Notes: generated by a model from the letters alone, not told the origin. A stretch of 37,040 bases of DNA from a virus (IMGVR_UViG_3300032373_000055:1-37040), one strand, 5' to 3'. Counted from the first letter of the stretch, positions 49-36,961 are shown. Translations and numbers: made by a program.

Positions 49-124
49 TCCCCGATAGCTCAGTTGGTAGAGCAGTTGACTGTTAATCAATTGGTCGGTG
101 GTTCGAGTCCGCCTCGGGGAGCCA
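49..124 (+). tRNA. tRNA-Asn (GTT)
   Basis: 76-nt cloverleaf: acceptor TCCCCGA/TCGGGGA, D arm AGCTCAGTTGGTAGAGC, anticodon GTT at 82-84, GGTTCGAGTCC T arm, encoded CCA. Confidence 0.98.
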
Positions 125-125
125 T
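78..125 (+). repeat. att core, left copy (48 bp, 3' half of tRNA-Asn from the anticodon arm)
   Basis: GACTGTTAATCAATTGGTCGGTGGTTCGAGTCCGCCTCGGGGAGCCAT identical to 36914-36961. Confidence 0.97.
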
Positions 126-207: not shown

Positions 208-1299
208 TTATCTAGTCGGTAAAACTTCGTTTTTCTTGCGGTCGTATACATTCGCGGCGGCGTCGGTTTTGTGGCCTGTTGCGTCTTTTATGTTGCCTTC
301 GTAATCGCTTGCGCCTTTGGCTTTTATGTCGTGGAAGGTGAAGCGGGTAAATTCTATTTCTCGTTTTTTTGCTTCAATTTCGGCGGCGTCCATTAAGCGC
401 TTCCATGCGGTAGTAAAGGCTTCTTCTTTTATCTCTGCGCCGTGAGCATCGGTAAAGATGGGTGATTTTGTTTTATCAAACCGTACCAGGTTACGCGGGC
501 GATTTAAGCCGGTGTCTACTGCTGTGCGTAGTCGGTTGCTCCATAGGGTTATCGCGTCGTTTGATCCCTTTACGCGGCGCGTGTCGAAGCCTACGGGGAG
601 AATGTCGGATTCTGCGCTTTGGCGGATTTCTATGCGGCGCATACGGCACAGGTAGGCCATTTCCATAAAAGGGCGAATATACCAGGCGCGTGCGCCTGCT
701 AGCTCATACACAAGATCATACCAAGCATCTTTAATGTATAGGTCGCGTGATTTTTCTTTGTTGCGGGTGACGCCGACGCATGGGTTTATCATGCCTTTGG
801 GTAGCTTGTCGCGGTTATAGGCCCAACTGTAGGCGGCGGATATAAATGCACGCTCTCTGTTGCCGCTTTTGGGTGCGCCCATTTCAGCGCGTCTGTCGAG
901 GTAGCCGCGAATAGTGCCGGGGGTTACTTCTCTAAAATCAGCATCACCAAAGAGTGAGCCGTCTGCGAGTTCGGTTTTAATGATTCGTGCGCTTGCACCT
1001 TTGTATTGCGCTTGTGTGGATTTTGCGCGCTCTTGAAAGCTGGGGGATTGAATGAATGAGGTTAATAAATATTTGAGCGCATGAATGTCTGTTTCTGTTT
1101 TCTGAATTTTGGCCTCGTAGGCTTTCCAGATATCAGATATGGGCGTGTTTTTATCGCCACCGCACAGGCGGATTTCTTTACCGAATTTTGTTTTACCATT
1201 CGAGCGTCCGAGGTAGGGCTTATAAAACCACCGTCCTTTTGCAAAATAGGTGTAAGGCGGTAGTTTGTCGTCTGCTTTTTTATCGCGTTTTCTGGCCAT
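208..1299 (-). CDS. int: Phage tyrosine integrase
   Basis: Box I LCRMR, box II FHDIKAK...GHKT...VYDR; basic N-terminal arm-binding region; adjacent to att. Confidence 0.95.
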   Translation of the reverse strand: MARKRDKKADDKLPPYTYFAKGRWFYKPYLGRSNGKTKFGKEIRLCGGDKNTPISDIWKAYEAKIQKTETDIHALKYLLTSFIQSPSFQERAKSTQAQYKGASARIIKTELADGSLFGDADFREVTPGTIRGYLDRRAEMGAPKSGNRERAFISAAYSWAYNRDKLPKGMINPCVGVTRNKEKSRDLYIKDAWYDLVYELAGARAWYIRPFMEMAYLCRMRRIEIRQSAESDILPVGFDTRRVKGSNDAITLWSNRLRTAVDTGLNRPRNLVRFDKTKSPIFTDAHGAEIKEEAFTTAWKRLMDAAEIEAKKREIEFTRFTFHDIKAKGASDYEGNIKDATGHKTDAAANVYDRKKNEVLPTR

Positions 1300-1370
1300 G
1301 TTGATTGCCTTTTTTGCCGTATAGCGCGCGGAAATTGCGGGTTATATGGTGATTGTCCTTCTAGTTATAG

Positions 1371-1541
1371 TTATATTTTTCTTAGTCTCATGTACACATC
1401 CAGCGCGACGCCACACCTTGCCGCCGCTACCTGCGAATCAGCCTCAAGCGGGAGATCTTCTGATTCAGCATTACTATCAATCGCAATGCTGGATAAGTAA
1501 TCAAGCAGCTCGTTTATCTTTTTTCGCTCTTTCTTCGTCAT
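1371..1541 (-). CDS. Hypothetical 56-aa protein (cassette-like gene, below ORF-track cutoff)
   Basis: MTKKERKKINELLDYLSSIAIDSNAESEDLPLEADSQVAAARCGVALDVYMRLRKI; AGGGG RBS; co-oriented with neighbours; stop lies in an ATATAAC core. Confidence 0.65.
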   Translation of the reverse strand: MTKKERKKINELLDYLSSIAIDSNAESEDLPLEADSQVAAARCGVALDVYMRLRKI

Positions 1542-1558
1542 AACTGTAATCCCCTAAA

Positions 1559-1627
1559 ATATAACTACACGCTCTAGGCCCGACAGTCTCGCTGCCGCTC
1601 GCCTACGGCTAAGCTAAAACGTTATGT
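1559..1627 (+). other. Integron attC-like recombination site (69 bp)
   Basis: R'' ATATAAC 1559-1565, 5-bp spacer, L'' GCT[C]TAG, central CTCGCTGCCGCTCG, L' CTAAGC 1609-1614, 6-bp spacer, R' GTTATGT 1621-1627; one extra C giving a bottom-strand extrahelical G. Confidence 0.75.
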
Positions 1628-1885
1628 GCTTACGCTGAGGCGTCTGTGTGTGGAAAGCAGAGCAGACTTACTCTTACCTAGCCAATAAAAAATATCGTGT
1701 GGCGTTTGTTTCGCTACTTCACCTGCTATTAACATTATTTCTATTCCATGTTTACGCTCAGCCGCTGCAAGCTCATATTCCAGCATGCGCGTTCCCGATG
1801 CGGTTTTACTAAAAGATGATGCCATTGCGCGTAACAAGTCATCCTTGTGGGCGGGCGTTGTCGGTGCTGTTTCCTTTTGCTTCAT
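1622..1885 (-). CDS. Hypothetical 87-aa protein (cassette-like)
   Basis: AAGGGG RBS; start codon inside the attC-like element 1829-1914; stop inside the core at 1621-1627. Confidence 0.65.
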   Translation of the reverse strand: MKQKETAPTTPAHKDDLLRAMASSFSKTASGTRMLEYELAAAERKHGIEIMLIAGEVAKQTPHDIFYWLGKSKSALLSTHRRLSVST

Positions 1886-1914
1886 AGTGCTACCCCTTAA
1901 TTTAAGAGTTAGAT
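1829..1914 (+). other. Degenerate attC-like site (86 bp)
   Basis: GCGTAAC-AAGTC-AT left end; CCCCTTAAT-TTAAGA-GTTAGAT right end with 6-bp spacer; the L boxes no longer pair. Confidence 0.5.
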
Positions 1915-2133
1915 TTAGTGCTGTTCTTCTAGTATTTGATGCCCTACGCCGATATGCATGGCTCTAAGTAGCGCCCACACTTCAGGAGGTACATTTTTTT
2001 TAACTTCGGTTTTTCGTTCTTTTACTAGTCCGATGATATCCGTATCAGGGGAGTGACCGGCTATAAGAAGTTTTTCGGCTTCTTTTATGTGCGCGTTCCA
2101 GCTTGTATTTGGAGGGGTGGTTTTCATAATCAT
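1915..2133 (-). CDS. Hypothetical 72-aa protein
   Basis: ATGA overlap with upstream gene; stop abuts the core at 1908-1914. Confidence 0.6.
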   Translation of the reverse strand: MIMKTTPPNTSWNAHIKEAEKLLIAGHSPDTDIIGLVKERKTEVKKNVPPEVWALLRAMHIGVGHQILEEQH

Positions 2134-2375
2134 TCAGTCGTTGGGTTTGGTTTAATGTTGTATGGGTCGTCGTAAATAATAATTGGTTTTGGTTCTTTTT
2201 TAGGTAAAAACTCTATGATGGTAAGGTGTTTTTTTCGCCTCTGGAGTGTTGCGCCGCTTTTATTGATAACAAGAACTTTCTTGCCTGCGTTGAGGGCTGT
2301 TTCTTTTATTAGGTGTGCCGCGTGGCTTTTTCCTGCTCTTCTTTCATGCATGGTCATTAACTCCGGCGTTATCAA
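2130..2375 (-). CDS. Hypothetical protein (true start may be ATG at 2357 or later)
   Basis: Overlaps both neighbours in a leftward operon. Confidence 0.6.
   Translation of the reverse strand: MITPELMTMHERRAGKSHAAHLIKETALNAGKKVLVINKSGATLQRRKKHLTIIEFLPKKEPKPIIIYDDPYNIKPNPTTE
2357..2374 (+). other. Right half of an attC-like site
   Basis: TTAAC-TCCGGC-GTTATCA fits L'-6 bp-R' geometry; complementary TTGATAAC at 2263-2270 but no pairing L'' box. Confidence 0.4.
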
Positions 2376-2668
2376 TCTAGTCTAAGATTGGATATGAATC
2401 CTTCAAGACTCATCGGGCCTTCTTCGTGCACCTGTTTTCTCACTGTTGCAGGCTCAATTATCAGGCCGGGGAATATGTCAATTACTTGCGTTAACTCCTC
2501 TAAGTCCGCGCTTCCTTTTTCGAAAATCTGAGCTACCGCTTTTCCTTCGTCTGTATATTCTCTGCCTTTGTGGGGCTGATAGTGAAAGGCGCACGCTTTG
2601 TCAATTTTACCGGCTAGCGCGGGATCAATTTTTTGATCAAGCAGGTAATTTAGTAATGAAAATTCCAT
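2372..2668 (-). CDS. Hypothetical 98-aa protein
   Basis: Open frame in operon; TGA stop overlaps the core at 2368-2374; ATG lies in a GTTATGG on the minus strand. Confidence 0.6.
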   Translation of the reverse strand: MEFSLLNYLLDQKIDPALAGKIDKACAFHYQPHKGREYTDEGKAVAQIFEKGSADLEELTQVIDIFPGLIIEPATVRKQVHEEGPMSLEGFISNLRLD

Positions 2669-2705
2669 AACGCTATATAGATAGCGTCTATTTCCATTTT
2701 TTCCT

Positions 2706-2903
2706 CTAAAACGCGATTGTTTTCTTTTCTTGCTTTTCGCCTAAGATGCCACGGTCAACCGCTGCTTGCGTGGTGCAGATCGTGCCGCCTTTTCCGTAGT
2801 CGAAAGGGATTTTCTTTCTAGTCAAAAATTTCTCGATATCGGCGGGGCGCTGGTAGCCTGTCCACTCTTCGAGGTCTTTTTGATTAAGGAGTCCGGCGGC
2901 CAT
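2706..2903 (-). CDS. DUF4224-like excisionase-type small DNA-binding protein
   Basis: L..kDLeeWTGYqR...iekFL....IPF...kGG pattern typical of DUF4224 proteins found next to phage integrases. Confidence 0.7.
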   Translation of the reverse strand: MAAGLLNQKDLEEWTGYQRPADIEKFLTRKKIPFDYGKGGTICTTQAAVDRGILGEKQEKKTIAF

Positions 2904-2911
2904 GATGTGGG

Positions 2912-3169
2912 TTAGGCGGTTGCGTGCGCGGTTGTGGTGATGGCTGATTGGTCTACCTGTATGAGCTTAATGCGCGGCATCCAGAACAGTTTTTTCTCGT
3001 TATAGTCGCGCGCTAGCAGGTTGTGCGAGCAGCTATACGCATAACGCGCTATCGGCGGTTTTGCGCCTGGTGCGAGGGTGATTGTTGTTCTGATCTTGTC
3101 GCACGCTTCTTTCGTCTCTTTGAGGCGCTGAATGCGTGCGAGTGTGTTTCTGATGATAGTGGCTAGCAT
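2912..3169 (-). CDS. Hypothetical phage protein
   Basis: AAAGGGAG RBS, ATG, operon context. Confidence 0.65.
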   Translation of the reverse strand: MLATIIRNTLARIQRLKETKEACDKIRTTITLAPGAKPPIARYAYSCSHNLLARDYNEKKLFWMPRIKLIQVDQSAITTTAHATA

Positions 3170-3224
3170 GATGATCTCCCTTTAGTGGTCTGTTGGTGTT
3201 GCGTTGGTTGTGTGGTGTGAGCCG

Positions 3225-3611
3225 CTACCACCTGGGGCCGCCCGCGCGCACGGCGTAATACATTGCCTTTGCCTTAAGTTTTGGCACGTCATCGGCAATC
3301 ATCGCCTCGTAAAACATTTTATGAACGGCTCTATGCGGTAGTGTTTTTGATGCGCAGTAAACATCATGGATGACAGAGGGGCGTCTGTATTTTCCAACGA
3401 AAGGCGAGCCGATGAAGCGCCAAAAGAATCGTGGAATACTTGCACCGTCAACGATGTCGCCAGCTTGTGCGCGCCATGTTGTGCCGGTTGAGTCTGTATA
3501 GCTTAGGCTTTCTATTAGCCGCATTTTTCTTTCGTCGTCATTTAGCCATTCGACTTTCACGCTGTTATCAAAGGTCATTAATGTTTGGTCGTTCACTTTA
3601 AATTGCCTCAT
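3225..3611 (-). CDS. DUF1353 family protein
   Basis: DGASIPRFFW..IGSP..GKY...SVIHD..C and MYYAVR.GG motifs. Confidence 0.85.
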   Translation of the reverse strand: MRQFKVNDQTLMTFDNSVKVEWLNDDERKMRLIESLSYTDSTGTTWRAQAGDIVDGASIPRFFWRFIGSPFVGKYRRPSVIHDVYCASKTLPHRAVHKMFYEAMIADDVPKLKAKAMYYAVRAGGPRW

Positions 3612-3906
3612 CTTTGCGTGGGTTGCTGCCTGCTAATGTGAAATCGCGAAATCTAACTTTGACTTCACCGAATTGCACGAGTTGCCGTGCGCGGTGAATG
3701 AGTTTCTTGAGAAACTTTTTCGCGTCTTTCTCTGTTGCGTTGCTGCCAACTGTTGTGACGCCTTTATACTGAATGCGGTAGGCGAAGCGGTGCGATGCGA
3801 TGCGGATTGACGGTGCCCAGCTGGCTTTATCAATCGGGCAAAGATCCGCTTTAATGCCTGCCTCATCAACAGTGATGGGCTTTGATGGTTTTCGCCTCGC
3901 TGTCAT
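3598..3906 (-). CDS. Hypothetical basic protein
   Basis: ATG at 3906 overlaps the ParB stop (ATGA) with GGAG RBS. Confidence 0.65.
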   Translation of the reverse strand: MTARRKPSKPITVDEAGIKADLCPIDKASWAPSIRIASHRFAYRIQYKGVTTVGSNATEKDAKKFLKKLIHRARQLVQFGEVKVRFRDFTLAGSNPRKDEAI

Positions 3907-5519
3907 TGGGTGTTCTCCGTTGTGAGTTTTTCCCACGCCCAACGGATGCCGGGCGGCACTCCTTTTATCTCGCTGCTGATGGCGTCTAGTTCTTCACTAG
4001 CATATTCGGGCGCGTGTTGTTTGCGGTATTCATCGTTGACTCGATAATCGGCGATGGTGATGCGGCGTGACTTGATTAGGCGCGCCAATGCTTTGTTGTG
4101 GGTTTTCGCTACGTGGATTTCGACTAGCTGAGGCAGTAAGTCGCCCACCATGTGGCTGCCCAGAAATTTGTCTGCTGTTGTCAGGTCAAGTTTTTGCAGC
4201 TTGTCGAAAAGGGTTGTTTCTTCTTCGTCGCTCCAGTATTGGTCGTGATCGCAATAATCGGTATCTAGTGTTTCTCGAGAAACGCCGTTAGGTGAGCGTG
4301 CGATAACCCACAATAAAAAATTAATACTGTCATCGGGGTCGGCTGATAGAGCGTTGGTTATATGTTGCTTTGCAAAGCTGATGACTAAATCGGTGTCGGT
4401 GCGCGCGGCGGTGTTTTTAATGTCAAAGCACGCGGTATTAAAACAGCCTTGAATGGTCTCGTTTTCGGTTGAGTCGTAAGCGGGCAGATTGTGGGCGCAA
4501 CCGTTGCATTTGGCTGGGTTGAAGCTGGCGTTTTCTAGCGGTAGCCAGTCTCGATGGCGGTAAAGTTCTTTCGCTGCAAGATCAACGCGACCCTGTTCAT
4601 CGGTTTCTATGATCGGCGCTGGCTTTGCCTCTCTCTCTTTTTGTTCTCTCTGCGCAGCTTTATTGTTTTTATTTTGTGCTGCCTCTGCCTTGGTCTTTTT
4701 GGTTTTAAAGCAGTCGTTGTCAAGGCAGAAAGTGCCGCTTCGGTTGTGTGTGCCAGTGACCTTGCGCATTTTTTGGCAGCCGACTTTTTTAACGCATTCC
4801 GTCTGGTAGTTGAAGGGCACCATCCACTCTTTGGTTAAATCTTGATGGAAGCGACTGAAAAGATCGTAGATTTCATCTTGTAGCTCGCGGGTATTGGGTT
4901 GCCATGGATCATCACCCGTAAGCAGGGTTTCTAGCTTATCCATTACGGTGGGGCTGTAGAGGGCGGGTAGTATGTATTTGCCGTGTGAGCCGGTTAGCTT
5001 GTTGTTTCGGATAAGGTCTTGCGCCCATGCTGGCAGCTCTGACAAGCGTGATATGTTGCTGATGTACGAGCGGCCCATATCATTAATGCCCTGCGTGGCT
5101 AGTAGTTTTTCAATTTCGGTGTATTTGAGCTTGTGCGTTTTGTGCAGCTCTTTGAAGAAGTTCGACCACTCCATCGGGTTCAAGTCCTGGCGTAGGCAGT
5201 TTTCTTTTACCTGGTCAACCAGGCGTGTGATTTCGTCGGTGGCTTCGCCATCGTAAAGCAGGCAGGGCACGGTCTCTTTATTGGCCATGCGGCTTGCGCG
5301 GTGTCTACGTTCGCCGTACACAATATAATAGGTGCCGGGTATCGTGGCGTTTTCACGAATGGTAATCGGTTGCTGTACGCCACGCCCTTTGATGTCTGTT
5401 GCCAGGCTGGAGAGTGCGACAAGATCAAAATCTTTTCGTGGTTGCGCTGGATCTGGTGTTACTAGGTCTAACGGCAGATGCGCAACAACGCCCGCTTTGA
5501 TTGTGGTGGTCTTGCTCAT
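3903..5519 (-). CDS. ParB/RepB/Spo0J-family protein with long Cys-rich C-terminal extension
   Basis: QPRKDF, GVQQPI, YGERRHRA (GxxRxxA), EN..RQDL, central HTH; two CxxC/CxxxxC clusters. Confidence 0.9.
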   Translation of the reverse strand: MSKTTTIKAGVVAHLPLDLVTPDPAQPRKDFDLVALSSLATDIKGRGVQQPITIRENATIPGTYYIVYGERRHRASRMANKETVPCLLYDGEATDEITRLVDQVKENCLRQDLNPMEWSNFFKELHKTHKLKYTEIEKLLATQGINDMGRSYISNISRLSELPAWAQDLIRNNKLTGSHGKYILPALYSPTVMDKLETLLTGDDPWQPNTRELQDEIYDLFSRFHQDLTKEWMVPFNYQTECVKKVGCQKMRKVTGTHNRSGTFCLDNDCFKTKKTKAEAAQNKNNKAAQREQKEREAKPAPIIETDEQGRVDLAAKELYRHRDWLPLENASFNPAKCNGCAHNLPAYDSTENETIQGCFNTACFDIKNTAARTDTDLVISFAKQHITNALSADPDDSINFLLWVIARSPNGVSRETLDTDYCDHDQYWSDEEETTLFDKLQKLDLTTADKFLGSHMVGDLLPQLVEIHVAKTHNKALARLIKSRRITIADYRVNDEYRKQHAPEYASEELDAISSEIKGVPPGIRWAWEKLTTENTQ

Positions 5520-5812
5520 GATGCGGCCTGCTTGTTTGCGTTTTCGATGTATTCCATGGCAGTGCTCACGGCGGCCTGATAATCACTGCCGCGCCCTAGT
5601 AGCTGCCAGCTGGCAAAAATGGCTTCGTTGACGGTAGTGACGGGCGTTTTTGCGGGTGCGTTTTTAATCACGTAATCGGCGAGGTCGATTTTGCATAGTG
5701 CTAGCCGCGCTAGCTGGCGTTTTCGCTTGGTCATTTGGGTGATGTTGGAAGCCACTGCGGCGGCGCGGTTGTCGTTTTGAATAATCTGGGTGGTGCTGTT
5801 TTGTGTTGGCAT
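5516..5812 (-). CDS. Hypothetical phage protein
   Basis: GAGGGAG RBS; ATGA overlap with ParB start. Confidence 0.7.
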   Translation of the reverse strand: MPTQNSTTQIIQNDNRAAAVASNITQMTKRKRQLARLALCKIDLADYVIKNAPAKTPVTTVNEAIFASWQLLGRGSDYQAAVSTAMEYIENANKQAAS

Positions 5813-5832
5813 TGTTGGCTCCCTCTCTGGTT

Positions 5833-6012
5833 TTAGTTTTCAGGCCGAAAGCGGCGGTTAAAATTTTCTCTGCTGAATACGCGCTCTTGATCGCATACCA
5901 CGTGGTCTTGACTGGTGGCGCGTACCTCTGCTCGCGTGCCGTTCCCGTCTACGTACCACTGCCCTATACCTGGCCGTGGAGTGGTGTATTGGCGCGATTG
6001 GTCGGGCTGCAT
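5833..6012 (-). CDS. 59-aa phage protein, DUF4222-like (below ORF-track cutoff)
   Basis: MQPDQSRQYTTPRPGIGQWYVDGNGTRAEVRATSQDHVVCDQERVFSRENFNRRFRPEN; fills the gap between flanking genes. Confidence 0.65.
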   Translation of the reverse strand: MQPDQSRQYTTPRPGIGQWYVDGNGTRAEVRATSQDHVVCDQERVFSRENFNRRFRPEN

Positions 6013-6013
6013 G

Positions 6014-6244
6014 CTAATTAACCTTGTGCGCTTCTATGTCTGGTGCGCCGCTTTCCCAGTAATCGAGCATGCGTCGAATTTCTCTGGTGCTGTCTGCTCT
6101 ATCGCATGAGCTGATGTATTGGGCGCGGCCTTCGGTGAAGATCATCAGCGTGAAAGCAACTTTTTCGCCTGCGGCTTCATCAATGAGCCGGTCAACCTCT
6201 TTCGCGATATCTGGTAGTTTTCTGCTTATCTTTTCAATTAACAT
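6014..6244 (-). CDS. Hypothetical 76-aa phage protein
   Basis: MLIEKISRKLPD...EAHKVN; ATG 2 bp after upstream stop with AAGGA RBS (the track's 178-aa extension overlaps another gene). Confidence 0.7.
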   Translation of the reverse strand: MLIEKISRKLPDIAKEVDRLIDEAAGEKVAFTLMIFTEGRAQYISSCDRADSTREIRRMLDYWESGAPDIEAHKVN

Positions 6245-6246
6245 GG

Positions 6247-6624
6247 CTACCATCCTTTGTGGTGGGTTAGTAGGGCGGTGGTAACGGCCATCTGGTCGGC
6301 ACTTAGCACGGATGGCAGTTTGCCTAGTGTGGTGCCGCTTTTGATCATGAGCTTGTTGCCTTCGGTCTCGTTGTACATGCTGACCATGACCGCTAAAAAT
6401 GTTGCGGCTTGCGTTGGGCGGTTTGCGATGGCTTTGCGGATAAGCGGCATATCGGGGCTGAGTTGGCGGTGGTGGGTGGCGCGTACCAGGAAGCCAACGC
6501 CGCCCGCATGAAATAGCGACGGCCCCGCTAATGCAGCGCCGCGTTTCCATGCCGCTAGAAAATCCGGGTTCCCGGTTGTCTTTGCTTGCCCGCCTAAGTC
6601 TGCCTGTGCTGCTGATGTGGTCAT
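6247..6624 (-). CDS. Hypothetical protein, first gene of the PL operon
   Basis: GAGGGTG RBS; ATG about 30 bp downstream of PL; ends in GW. Confidence 0.7.
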   Translation of the reverse strand: MTTSAAQADLGGQAKTTGNPDFLAAWKRGAALAGPSLFHAGGVGFLVRATHHRQLSPDMPLIRKAIANRPTQAATFLAVMVSMYNETEGNKLMIKSGTTLGKLPSVLSADQMAVTTALLTHHKGW

Positions 6625-6654
6625 GTTTTCACCCTCTGCTGATGCGCGATGGGT

Positions 6655-6697
6655 GAAGTAAAGCACACTTAACCTTTTAGGGTCAAGCCTACTTAAC
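6655..6697 (-). promoter_or_regulatory. PL promoter with two operators (OL)
   Basis: Operators GTAAAGCACACTTAAC 6658-6673 and GTCAAGCCTACTTAAC 6682-6697; minus strand TTGACC-18 bp-TTTACT with TGn extension. Confidence 0.75.
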
Positions 6698-6756
6698 TTG
6701 TTATGTGGTAATTTTAGGTTTGAATATTTGTTTTTTCGTATATAGGGAGTTCTCTA

Positions 6757-7227
6757 GTGGGATGTAAAAAGTGTGGTCTTGATCTAACGAAGGCTGAAGA
6801 AAATACCGGGTTGTGCTTTAAGTGCGAGGGCAGTCTAACTGAGGAAGAGACAGTTGAGCTGCGGCGGACGCAGCTCCTGCGTGATCAGGCTGTTGGTGGG
6901 GTGATGTTGACGACGGAAACTTACTCGCCTGATTTGGTGATTGATGAGCGGCTGGATGTGGTGACAGCTGAGTGTGTGTTTGGGATGAATATCTTTCGTG
7001 ATTTTTTCGCTAGTGTTCGGGATATATTTGGTGGCCGGAGTGCGGCAACACAAAATGTGCTGCGAGATGCCCGAACGATGGTGCTTAATGAGTTGAAAAA
7101 GGAAGCAAAGGCGGTTGGTGCTAATGCGGTAGTCGGCGTTCGCCTGGATTATAGTGAGATATCAGGAAAGGGAGCTTCAATGTTGTTTGTGGTTGCTAGC
7201 GGGACGGCTGTGGTGATAAAGAGCTAG
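6757..7227 (+). CDS. YbjQ/UPF0145 family protein with N-terminal CxxC-CxxC zinc ribbon
   Basis: [39 protein letters not shown] motifs. Confidence 0.9.
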
Positions 7228-21028: not shown

Positions 21029-21634
21029 ATGGCAGCAAAAACAGACACAGAAGAGAATGACCACATCCGCGCGGCATTCCGCTCACATGGTATTTTACCG
21101 TATCCGGGTGTTTCTGCCGCTGTCGCTGCGGGCGCTCGTTATTATGCAACTAACGTTTATGGCCCGTACATTCTTGAAGCAGAAAACAGCGGTACAACCA
21201 ATGCATCGGCGGAGCCTGCTTGGTCTGTCGGTCTTGGGGATATCACGCCTGATAACGACGTTAATTTTAAGTGTTATCACACCGGCACACTCAAGCGGCC
21301 TATATACATTGCATTGTTTACAGGCGCGCCGGGCGAAGCTGGCGGAGGTGTTGAGGTGGCAGGCGGCAGCTATGCGCGTGCGCAGTTAGACCCTGATGAT
21401 GCCAACTGGGCGGCACCTGTTGCCGGTAATGCGACTACGTCAAACCTTGCGCCGGTTACGTTTCCCGATCCATCGGCAGACTGGGGCAGCGTCACGCACT
21501 GGGCTGTAATGGACGCAGCAACGGGCGGCACTATGCGCAAGTATGCAGCGTTAATCGTACCGGCAGCTATTGCGCCGCCTTCGACTAATATCACGTTTGC
21601 GGCTGGCGCGTTGACATACCAAGAAGACAACTAG
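21029..21634 (+). CDS. Virion fibre-associated protein
   Basis: YIALFT..P...GGG.EV.GGSYAR...N...VTFP....DWG.VTH...DAATGG conserved phage pattern. Confidence 0.75.
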   Translation: MAAKTDTEENDHIRAAFRSHGILPYPGVSAAVAAGARYYATNVYGPYILEAENSGTTNASAEPAWSVGLGDITPDNDVNFKCYHTGTLKRPIYIALFTGAPGEAGGGVEVAGGSYARAQLDPDDANWAAPVAGNATTSNLAPVTFPDPSADWGSVTHWAVMDAATGGTMRKYAALIVPAAIAPPSTNITFAAGALTYQEDN

Positions 21635-21657
21635 CGCTACGCAACAAGGATTATTAA

Positions 21658-22467
21658 GTGCCTATATCAGAAAAGGTAATTGTCAATTTCCACTCGAGCG
21701 CGCCCGTGGCCGCTGAAGTTGCTAACAATATTGACGCTGTTATTGTCGGCACGAACGTGGCAGATCTTGTTGATATCAATAACGTCGCAACGGGGGTGTC
21801 GCTGTCTTGTGCTATTGCTGCTGGCAATCGCACCGCGCAGTGGGCTGGTACTGGGCGGGCAGTCGGTGCTGACCAGACGATTGCAGAGCTAAACGCAGAG
21901 GGGCAATCGCTGGCTGTATCAGCTGAGGGAGCGCCATTTGTCTGGGTGCTTCAGTTGCCGCCGTCACATGGCAACGTTGATATCGATATGGGTTGTTGTA
22001 CTACGTACGGCGGTCAAGTTGATATGCATTTTGCGGCGAACGGTGTCATATTAAATGTCGCCAGTGGTGTTGGTACAAACAACGTCACAGGCCAGATGTT
22101 TACATTATCAAACGTAGCGCCAGATGGATCAGATCAAATAGTTATTACATTAGACAACAATGGGCCTGTCGCCGATTTCGCGTACTTAAATGGCATTATT
22201 ATTCACCCGGTCAGCGCGCCGACTGGTAACAGTGCAACTGACACATTGCTGGATGGCGCAGATAATCCGATCGCATCGCAGACGCTAGATTTTTTCATGA
22301 CTGAGACATGGGGCGGCGCTGCGACTGATAGTGGTACTTTAACAACGAATGCAAGCGGGGTTTTTACTCTGTCGGGATTAACTGCTGCGGTCGGCAATAA
22401 CTGGCTGCACATTAAAAACCAGGCTGACGCTAACATTGTGTCGTCATTTATCGTCACGGTCACATAA
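21658..22467 (+). CDS. Beta-rich virion protein (lectin-like plus Ig-like domain, inferred)
   Basis: Acidic, Asn/Thr/Gly-rich; AAGGA RBS; within structural operon. Confidence 0.65.
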   Translation: MPISEKVIVNFHSSAPVAAEVANNIDAVIVGTNVADLVDINNVATGVSLSCAIAAGNRTAQWAGTGRAVGADQTIAELNAEGQSLAVSAEGAPFVWVLQLPPSHGNVDIDMGCCTTYGGQVDMHFAANGVILNVASGVGTNNVTGQMFTLSNVAPDGSDQIVITLDNNGPVADFAYLNGIIIHPVSAPTGNSATDTLLDGADNPIASQTLDFFMTETWGGAATDSGTLTTNASGVFTLSGLTAAVGNNWLHIKNQADANIVSSFIVTVT

Positions 22468-23927
22468 TGCCCCGCTATCTAAGAACAGCGCAGGGCGTTG
22501 GCGGTCGCCGACTGCAAACATCCCTGCAATCAGTCGGTGGCGGTAGCAGCTACGACGATCCATTTGATGGTACTGGCGCGCTAGATCCTAAATGGCTCAA
22601 CTATCAAGCGGCGGCAGTGCCTGGCGTGCAGCGAAATGCGGGATTTTATCGAGCCGACATCACAGACAACACCTCAGATGTTACTCTATGGTTTCACGGC
22701 AGCACTGGCAGATTCGACTATCAAGGCGTTACATTTCCGTTAGCAGGTGTTGATGAGTATGTTTTTAATGACGTAGGGATTGGCCCAACATCAAATCCAT
22801 CTGCCAATCACGTGTTTGCCTCTGACGCATTTAATTTTTGCGGCATTATGATACATAACGACAGTTTTTCCCTGCCAAACTATATGTTCCAGGTTGTCGG
22901 GCATCGAAGCTTTCTTGCACAATCGACATTAGAGCTTAAGTCTACAGTCGATGGTGGTAGTTCGATGTACGACGTAGGCACTGATGCTATCGGCGCTGGT
23001 GTTACGCATTGTGATATGCGTGTGCGACTACACAGCGATGGTGCAGTTGATTTTGCATATCGCGCCGTGGGCGGTGGCGGATGGACGCTGCCTGGTGGGG
23101 ATGGTTTAACGCCTACGCCCCGCCCCGCACTGGGCGCAGCTGGTGACACTGTTTACCTGGGTTTAATCACTTACGCACAAGATACGGCGGGGCTGCCGTT
23201 TGCTGGTACGGTCGATAGCGTATCGACGTTAGCGGGTGGCACAGCTGTCCCCTTATCTGGTGCGGCTGTATCGTTAGCAACGGCGGCGGGCGTAATCACA
23301 ACAAGTATGCCGATAACCGGCAGCGCTGCTAGCATCACAAACGCAAACGGCGCGCTCTCTGCAACAATTAACATTAATGGTGCGGCGGTAGCAGAGGCAA
23401 TAGCGGCGGCGGCACTATCATCAGGTATCGCGTTGGCGGGTGACGCGGTAGCTGCTGCAATAGCAACCGGCGGCCTCTCTATTAATTTAGGGTTAAATGG
23501 CAGCGCGGTAAGTGAAGCAGCTGCAAGCGGCGTTTTGTCATCATCGGGTGCGGTGTCATTATCAGGCAATGCCGCAGCAAGTGCGGATGCAAGCGCAGCG
23601 CTAACGATGGAGATCCCAATCAGCGGCGCATCAATGTCAACCAGCGGCGCAAGCGGTAGCCTCGGTGCAATATTTCCACTATCAGGTGGTGGTGCGTCGG
23701 TCACAACAGCAGTTGGCGCTTTAAATATAGGTTTTAATCTAGCAGGCAATGCTAATGCATCATCTTTGGCAGATGGCACAATCACTTTTCGCGTCAACCT
23801 TAGTGCGGCGGCGGTGTCTCAGGCATCGGCGGCGGGTGCGTTGAATCTTGGTGGTGATCATAAAAAGGCATCCTCGTCGCGCCTGTCTACTGTAAGGCAC
23901 GAAAGCCGACATGTTGTTGTTAAATAA
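22467..23927 (+). CDS. Fibre protein: N-terminal lectin-like domain plus Ala/Gly/Ser repeat stalk
   Basis: Repeats of roughly 21-22 aa (L.G.A...a.a.G.L) in the C-terminal half. Confidence 0.7.
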   Translation: MPRYLRTAQGVGGRRLQTSLQSVGGGSSYDDPFDGTGALDPKWLNYQAAAVPGVQRNAGFYRADITDNTSDVTLWFHGSTGRFDYQGVTFPLAGVDEYVFNDVGIGPTSNPSANHVFASDAFNFCGIMIHNDSFSLPNYMFQVVGHRSFLAQSTLELKSTVDGGSSMYDVGTDAIGAGVTHCDMRVRLHSDGAVDFAYRAVGGGGWTLPGGDGLTPTPRPALGAAGDTVYLGLITYAQDTAGLPFAGTVDSVSTLAGGTAVPLSGAAVSLATAAGVITTSMPITGSAASITNANGALSATININGAAVAEAIAAAALSSGIALAGDAVAAAIATGGLSINLGLNGSAVSEAAASGVLSSSGAVSLSGNAAASADASAALTMEIPISGASMSTSGASGSLGAIFPLSGGGASVTTAVGALNIGFNLAGNANASSLADGTITFRVNLSAAAVSQASAAGALNLGGDHKKASSSRLSTVRHESRHVVVK

Positions 23928-36913: not shown

Positions 36914-36961
36914 GACTGTTAATCAATTGGTCGGTGGTTCGAGTCCGCCTCGGGGAGCCAT
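36914..36961 (+). repeat. att core, right copy (48 bp)
   Basis: Identical to 78-125. Confidence 0.97.

Follow-up and report, generated by a model that had tools for sequence, protein, structure and literature searches.

Integrons are regarded as bacterial devices, and the mosaicism of accessory genes in phage early regions is usually ascribed to illegitimate or homologous recombination. According to the available portions of the sources, IntI recombines the folded bottom strand of attC, flipped insertion through the top strand being 1000-10,000 times rarer (Nivina et al. 2016, PMC5027507), and integrons have lately been seen as stores of anti-phage genes (10.1101/2024.07.02.601686). Clusters of attC sites are already known from phages. 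Qi et al. 2023 (PMC9892861), as far as the accessible text goes, described 17 phage CALINs and found that IntI1 recombined 5 of 6 tested sites. The prophage insert described here shares the attC anatomy of complete integrons, but its genes run the other way and it lacks an integron integrase.

The prophage and its insert

The insert lies in a virus record of 37,040 bases, the whole of which was analysed and is referred to below as the window. Because attachment cores are present at both ends, we take the window to hold a whole 36.8-kb prophage despite an estimated completeness of 53%. The features discussed are the following.

49-124, plus strand: tRNA-Asn (GTT), the prophage insertion target
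78-125, plus strand: attachment core of 48 bp at the left prophage end, a piece of the tRNA-Asn, repeated exactly at 36914-36961
208-1299, minus strand: phage tyrosine integrase of the ZF40/mEp390/ST64B type, not IntI (phrog_1, E 2.7e-27)
1341-1376, plus strand: candidate attI-like docking site (GTTA box at 1341, CTA at 1361-1363, crossover between G1370 and T1371)
1371-1621, plus strand: cassette 1, intact, 251 bp, with a 10-base R'/R'' complement
1371-1541, minus strand: 56-aa gene of cassette 1, opposed to attC, with homologues at 82-86%
1556-1627, plus strand as top strand: attC site (37.2 bits, E 5e-7), extra bases on the left arm
1622-1908, plus strand: cassette 2, worn; right half ranked 2 of 316, no covariance-model match
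1622-1885, minus strand: reversed 87-aa gene of cassette 2, its start and ribosome-binding motif within an attC remnant at about 1829-1914
1909-2368, plus strand: unit 3, a probable worn two-gene cassette; right half ranked 8 of 316, left half unrecognisable
1915-2133 and 2130-2354 (or 2375), minus strand: reversed genes of unit 3, with an attC right-half remnant at about 2353-2374
2369-2671, plus strand: unit 4, with a reversed 98-aa gene at 2372-2668 and no attC behind it
2706-2903, minus strand: DUF4224 excisionase (PF13986 above cut-off; phrog_1266)
36914-36961, plus strand: second copy of the attachment core at the right prophage end, an exact repeat of 78-125

The integrase (Int) is 27-33% identical to the integrases of ZF40, mEp390 and ST64B. 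The excisionase gene of ZF40 and mEp390 lies directly next to int, and the 1.4 kb that separates the two genes in the window is therefore an insert. A preliminary description of this DNA had placed five small genes between the DUF4224 Xis-like gene and int, and five minus-strand open reading frames of 56, 87, 72, 74-81 and 98 aa were indeed found there, none of which matched a Pfam or PHROG family above noise. The same description held that Int, with HDIKAK as its box II, does not look like IntI. Box II was confirmed as HDIKAK, and the distinction held up when Int was compared with proteins chosen by IntI motifs: Int lacks both the IntI insert and these motifs, and gave no match to TIGR02249. 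No intI gene scored over the cut-off beside the array in the window record. Elsewhere in the prophage, large Ala-/Gly-rich open reading frames (201, 269 and 486 aa) at 21029-23927, between the capsid and head-tail genes, likely encode virion decoration or fibre proteins.

GTTA occurs on the plus strand of the insert at 1370, 1621, 1908 and 2368, only the one at 1908 conforming to the strict GTTRRRY consensus. The core's own TAA serves as the stop codon of two genes (1371-1373 and 1622-1624), a third gene stops directly beside a core (2372-2374) and a fourth three bases off (1915-1917), so that four of the five small genes stop in or against a TAAC core, as had been proposed; the end of the remaining gene (2130-2354) is the start of the next, and no core is present there. 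Outside the insert, TAAC was found within 8 bases of the stop in 3 of 43 called genes.

The element at 1559-1627 has the full attC architecture attributed to it, with R''/R' and L''/L' boxes, 5- and 6-base spacers and, in the L'' arm, an extra-helical base. The suggested covariance-model check, run with a model trained on the bottom strands of 70 bacterial attC sites, returned this element as the only significant match in the window (37.2 bits, E 5e-7; next best 12.3 bits), a result to be read as family likeness and not as a fully independent test because the pattern by which the training sites were collected was drawn from the L boxes of 1559-1627. With a simple scanner two sites in the window had 6/6 L pairs, and 1559-1627 alone also had TAAC and GTTA ends. 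Among 3000 first-order Markov copies of 1300-2750, none contained a site that ended in TAAC and GTTA and had 6/6 L pairs, the extra C and 3/4 outer pairs; when the extra C and the outer pairs were left out, 0.1% of copies did. Rfam gave no match to the element. Since the extra base and the 5-base spacer sit on the left arm, the attC top strand is the plus strand. The opposite reading of the array, in the direction of the genes with the minus strand as top strand, does not agree with the spacer lengths or with the arm on which the extra base sits, and was rejected. All genes of the insert are minus-strand frames, and the claim that each is reversed relative to attC therefore stands.

Folding of the bottom strand, also suggested as a check, did not distinguish the element: in its integrated form the unconstrained fold was no better than that of shuffled sequences (z 0.76). 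The computed probability of the recombinogenic fold was 1.4e-4 for the integrated site, 2.6e-2 for the circular form and 0.075 for the related copy in a second prophage (L001, below). For the integrated site, both the fold comparison and the low probability weigh against activity. On sequence grounds we judge 1559-1627 to be a real attC, and the 251-bp cassette that it closes to be intact.

This cassette starts with ten bases (1370-1379) that are the exact reverse complement of 1556-1565 in its own R'', the sign of a once-circular unit that had been reported. The 56-aa gene is preceded by a purine-rich ribosome-binding motif at 1550-1555. In run X1, possibly the source sample, a 338-base contig matched 1370-1486 with 19 differences; its match starts exactly at the core (1370, between G and TT), and the bases preceding it read as the right half of a different attC. 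Of the listed differences, 9/12 are third-position changes when read in the minus-strand frame (p 0.004), and the coding strand of cassette 1 is therefore minus. A plus-strand open reading frame at 1346-1543 was rejected, since the same 9/12 would be second codon positions there. An excised circle or a joint skipping cassette 1 was not seen among the X1 contigs, a set that cannot show absence. Viral contigs held no relative locus for the int, 56-aa, 87-aa or 98-aa proteins, and the metagenome contigs searched for relatives of this phage held none for the 56-aa family; look-alikes of the 56-aa protein in the atlas scored 0.79-0.81, within chance. We read cassette 1 as a mobile unit with a reversed gene.

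The units behind it show wear. In a ranking of 316 GTTA and 316 TAAC sites by a profile drawn from 378 attC halves of other loci, the GTTA at 1621 came first as a right half, 1908 second and 2368 eighth, while the left-half candidates (1832, 2267 and 2668) ranked 32, 155 and 191; by these half-site ranks attC decay increases away from 1370. No start/R'' complement in the later units is exact beyond 6 bases, and 1829-1914 and 2262-2374 both fail as whole sites, leaving one whole attC in the window. In cassette 2 the position of the 87-aa gene's start and ribosome-binding motif inside the remnant would explain the loss of the left arm. No homologue of the 87-aa protein was found, and blastn of 1915-2375 against GenBank phages gave no match. 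The 98-aa protein has four distant homologues (33-42%); with no attC behind its gene, unit 4 may be resident phage DNA where the array opens. Of the five-gene cassette array originally proposed, one intact cassette was upheld, and the later units are represented only by right-half remnants, strong at 1908 and weaker at 2368. As far as sequence can tell, the insert is one whole cassette, one clear remnant and one probable remnant.

Two further structures were noted in this part of the insert. The segments 2262-2270 and 2368-2376 are perfectly complementary over 9 bases in inverted orientation and include TAAC and GTTA cores, with no L-box pairing between them; the match is possibly chance. Between the 98-aa gene and xis, a short hairpin at 2662-2695 holds on its minus strand a CTA-N6-GTTA site whose core overlaps the start codon of the 98-aa gene; the hairpin may represent an attC that has collapsed, or else a second docking site in the opposite direction.

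A second prophage and a survey of cassette arrays

The specific pattern of this attC retrieved one viral locus, two metagenome loci (one of them this contig) and no locus in bacterial genomes. The further virus record, L001/G001 (45.6 kb), comes from the same assembly as the window contig, and both were seen in run X1. It carries RecT, RecE-like, exonuclease and SSB genes and an integrase unrelated to Int, at tRNA-Val, and no intI over the cut-off. Its ssb-int interval (4988-6804) holds four consecutive cassettes with start/R'' complements of 9, 10, 9 and 11 bases. The four attC sites all score and differ in sequence type, and all genes lie opposite to the attC top strand; the start codon of the third cassette falls inside its attC, and the first attC is computed to fold with a probability of 0.22. 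With four attC sites and no intI, L001 falls under the CALIN definition. Its four-cassette array is a better test object than the window.

The only DNA common to the two prophages is the 82-base attC, 91% identical, after whose core the sequences diverge. We considered whether the left 1.6 kb of the window had been mis-joined to the remaining phage through a 37-base stretch common with L001. Public contigs do end at this repeat, which has two entries and two exits, and depths of 46, 33, 37 and 41 give no preference for the assembled pairing; the 48-base tRNA-Asn core recurs at the far end of the window, however, and a 52-base tRNA-Val core at that of L001, whereas the crossed pairings have just 10 and 11 bases in common. 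Because attachment cores recur at the far ends of both contigs, a mis-join is refuted.

Homologues of two L001 cassette genes occur in cultured phages (Shewanella phage KASIA, L269, 2501-2725; and L268). No attC was found around these homologues in the two phages, which suggests exchange between cassette and ordinary gene states.

For a broader comparison, one strand-specific pattern, representing one attC subtype, was scanned over 128 viral stretches (about half of the collection) and 133 genome stretches (4/64 parts), giving 134 distinct viral and 154 distinct genome sites in records that are not independent. Sites without an 8-base cassette boundary (65 viral, 95 genome) were set aside, many of them having only 300 bases of flank taken. 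By a symmetric ORF window, the 68 bounded viral cassettes comprised 40 reversed, 5 forward, 19 ambiguous and 4 without an ORF, and the 58 bounded genome cassettes 9 reversed, 38 forward, 10 ambiguous and 1 without, so that reversed and forward genes stand at 40:5 in viruses versus 9:38 in genomes (Fisher 5e-12, with non-independent records). The reversed frame ended on the TAA of the starting core in 29/68 viral cassettes. Of the reversed frames, 19/67 matched PHROG families, as against 0/64 forward frames; the families included methyltransferases, PAPS reductase, tRNA-guanine transglycosylase-like, DHH, RNA ligase and HNH proteins. Extending the sites into chains, on the criteria of boundary and score, gave 83 viral chains (a count that includes the window, L001 and repeated L052 rows), of which 56 had two or more attC sites; the reversed-to-forward ratio was 116:17 among 180 viral chain cassettes and 11:75 among 103 genomic ones.

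Seven bacterial genome loci were checked for phage genes: one reversed case, at 3461-3889 of L208, adjoined prophage tail genes, another had a methyltransferase as its neighbour, and the rest gave no sign. In MW202573 (L270), a record from Qi et al., the model placed four attC sites at 2069-3738, downstream of the excisionase and with their top strand opposite to the annotated early genes. Phage arrays are not all reversed, as TJE1 has three model-placed attC sites with forward cassettes.

It had been proposed that variable-gene breakpoints in relatives would coincide with GTT cores. Of 79 long matches between viral loci, 14 have an end that coincides with a junction in each of the two loci, and in 7/8 of the shared-cassette junctions displayed, identity drops from 35-40/40 to 5-19/40 at GTT; the L050/L074 junction (23 and 19 of 40) is ambiguous in an ungapped display. 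In other phages, and in the homologue break at 1370, the prediction was borne out.

No IntI scored over the cut-off in the 48 virus records searched (from 50 of 76 loci), two of which hold intI fragments. One provirus record with a broken intI, L052 (G029), has five attC matches about 316 bases apart at 2748-4077. We asked whether cassette recombination might be a second function of the phage Int itself, which would account for the array beginning right upstream of int. The geometry is integron-like, with int divergent from the attC top strand and the first site 70 bases from the int start, and in L001, L042 and L044 the first site likewise has int or xis-int next to it. Set against this are the missing IntI insert and motifs of Int, the unrelated integrases of two prophages with a common attC, the arrays whose neighbours are holin-endolysin, small terminase, head-tail or ssb genes, and the lack of a PHROG-1 integrase in 12/15 near-complete array-bearing virus records. 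We consider such a role for Int very improbable. The features of Int and the 12/15 records instead favour an enzyme acting in trans.

The start of the array resembles attI, a likeness that the preliminary description did not note. In the window, CTA-N6-GTT at 1361-1372 is preceded by an extra GTTA 29 bases upstream, with the same 29-base spacing in L001. As a short motif it turns up six times in the window; it precedes the first cassette in 14/34 viral chains (12/32 without the window and L001), compared with 21/1254 other GTTA and 0/230 attC ends. The attI1 site of a plasmid record has CTA-N7-GTT, one base longer than the phage form, and a GTTA 32 bases upstream. Among five first sites adjacent to intI in genomes, L161 has CTA-N6, L141 an equally spaced TA, and in the other three the spacing is longer; the intI adjoining the L161 site (1804-2845) is frameshifted into two reading frames. 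Hairpins preceding the first site were not above controls (mean 6.2 vs 5.9). The published attG consensus, in the part of the source available (10.1101/2022.09.11.507474), is GWT only. We regard 1341-1376 as attI-like, with a putative docking function.

A simpler account is that a single cassette was dropped once at a secondary GTT, the other four genes being ordinary phage accessory genes and no reusable platform being present. The window has only one whole attC, the left halves (1832, 2267 and 2668) match poorly, and a refilled site was seen in no relative of this phage in searches of viral contigs and GenBank phages; IntI can also insert cassettes at bare GWT, according to the accessible part of 10.1101/2022.09.11.507474. 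Such a drop leaves unexplained the GTTA after cassettes 2 and 3, ranking 2 and 8 of 316 as right halves, and the enrichment of the first-junction motif at array starts, which is unexpected for bare GWT, while the co-occurring prophage L001 has four intact cassettes behind a similar site. We judge a single drop to be quite unlikely.

Alternatively, the sites may be real and swappable but worked by another recombinase, of a small or Xer-like tyrosine type and supplied by the host or a helper element. The absence of intI over the cut-off in the phage record would fit, as would the lack of bacterial genome loci with the specific attC pattern and the phage first-site spacing, one base off that of attI1, and a very small recombinase could slip past searches of virus records. 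The survey pattern, on the other hand, also retrieves bacterial arrays, 10 loci of which carry IntI motifs, and a model of bacterial sites gives the window attC 37 bits; in the available text of Qi et al. (PMC9892861), IntI1 itself acted on most of the phage sites assayed. Another recombinase therefore seems unlikely, if less so than a single drop.

A probable cassette platform served by the host

The reading that we think probable, given the observed sites, boundaries, coding strand, GTT breakpoints, absence of intI and recurring layout, is that an attI-like site and reversed cassettes, one intact and two or three worn, between xis and int form a platform on which host IntI inserts and removes cassettes in trans. 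A phage-borne cassette platform using host IntI had been the central proposal of the preliminary description, and the model match, the breaks at GTT and the dissimilarity of Int to IntI lend it support. A host integron integrase would act in trans on the phage-borne cassettes, and a circular cassette would recombine through its folded bottom strand between G1370 and T1371 in normal polarity. Because the attI-like core and the attC top strand lie on the same strand, insertion is canonical and it is the gene that is reversed inside the cassette, not the cassette. New cassettes would enter at the int-proximal, promoter-distal end and push older ones away, and the cassette genes would be read by a leftward early transcript of the phage from the xis side. 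We infer this transcript, as no promoter-like site was found in 1200-3300, where minus-strand terminator-like sites were also not found. The older, distal attC sites would decay, in part perhaps because the start and ribosome-binding site of a reversed gene land inside attC, by which the gene would become fixed in the phage. Such a platform would likely let the phage renew its early accessory genes by cassette swapping.

This arrangement makes two predictions: ordinary host cassettes inserted at 1370 would be antisense to the phage transcript and so silent, and reversed cassettes placed behind a chromosomal Pc promoter would not be expressed either. Speculatively, reversal keeps host defence cassettes mute in the phage and phage cassettes mute in the host. 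A wider and more doubtful proposal, which we offer tentatively, is that phages keep a reversed-cassette pool and attI sites of their own and trade early genes through host IntI, with reversal as a firewall and operons possibly making cassettes. Phage operons may make cassettes because 29/68 reversed genes end on the core TAA and homologues occur packed without attC. If so, the cargo traded between unrelated phages would be methyltransferases, DNA-modification enzymes, HNH nucleases and small unknowns.

The locus bears on how cassettes arise, the two prophages with one common attC being a concrete case. If the platform is real, it would provide a site-specific route to phage early-region mosaicism and an example of phages exploiting a host shuffling enzyme. 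The array would also mark small phage genes under selection for exchange, which would make good counter-defence candidates.

Comparison with known systems

Like the phage CALINs in the accessible text of PMC9892861, the window has small genes bounded by attC in a phage without intI. Those CALINs include DNA methyltransferases in their cargo, and MW202573 among them has the same layout as the window. That text puts capture down to off-target or illegitimate recombination and does not mention gene reversal or a phage attI-like site; in a literature search that covered sources outside subscription, we did not find the reversal and the docking site described. With one whole attC and no intI, the window strictly holds a single-attC element and therefore no CALIN.

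The window also resembles SALINs, as these are described in the available part of 10.1101/2022.09.11.507474, in its one whole attC, the lack of a nearby integron integrase and its probable expression from a resident promoter. The SALIN target is bare GWT without strand bias, whereas the junction in the window has a motif common to other phage arrays, and unlike in SALINs further worn units in one polarity follow.

With complete integrons, in the portion of PMC5027507 drawn on here, the window shares the attC anatomy, the 5- and 6-base spacers and the extra bases on one arm. The R'/R'' complement of a once-circular cassette, a first site like attI and what would be the newest cassette beside it are likewise alike. 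Unlike complete integrons, the window has no intI and no detected Pc, its genes are reversed and would be read from the far end, and start codons can fall inside attC. The array would work like an integron array, while being neither a complete integron nor, strictly, a CALIN.
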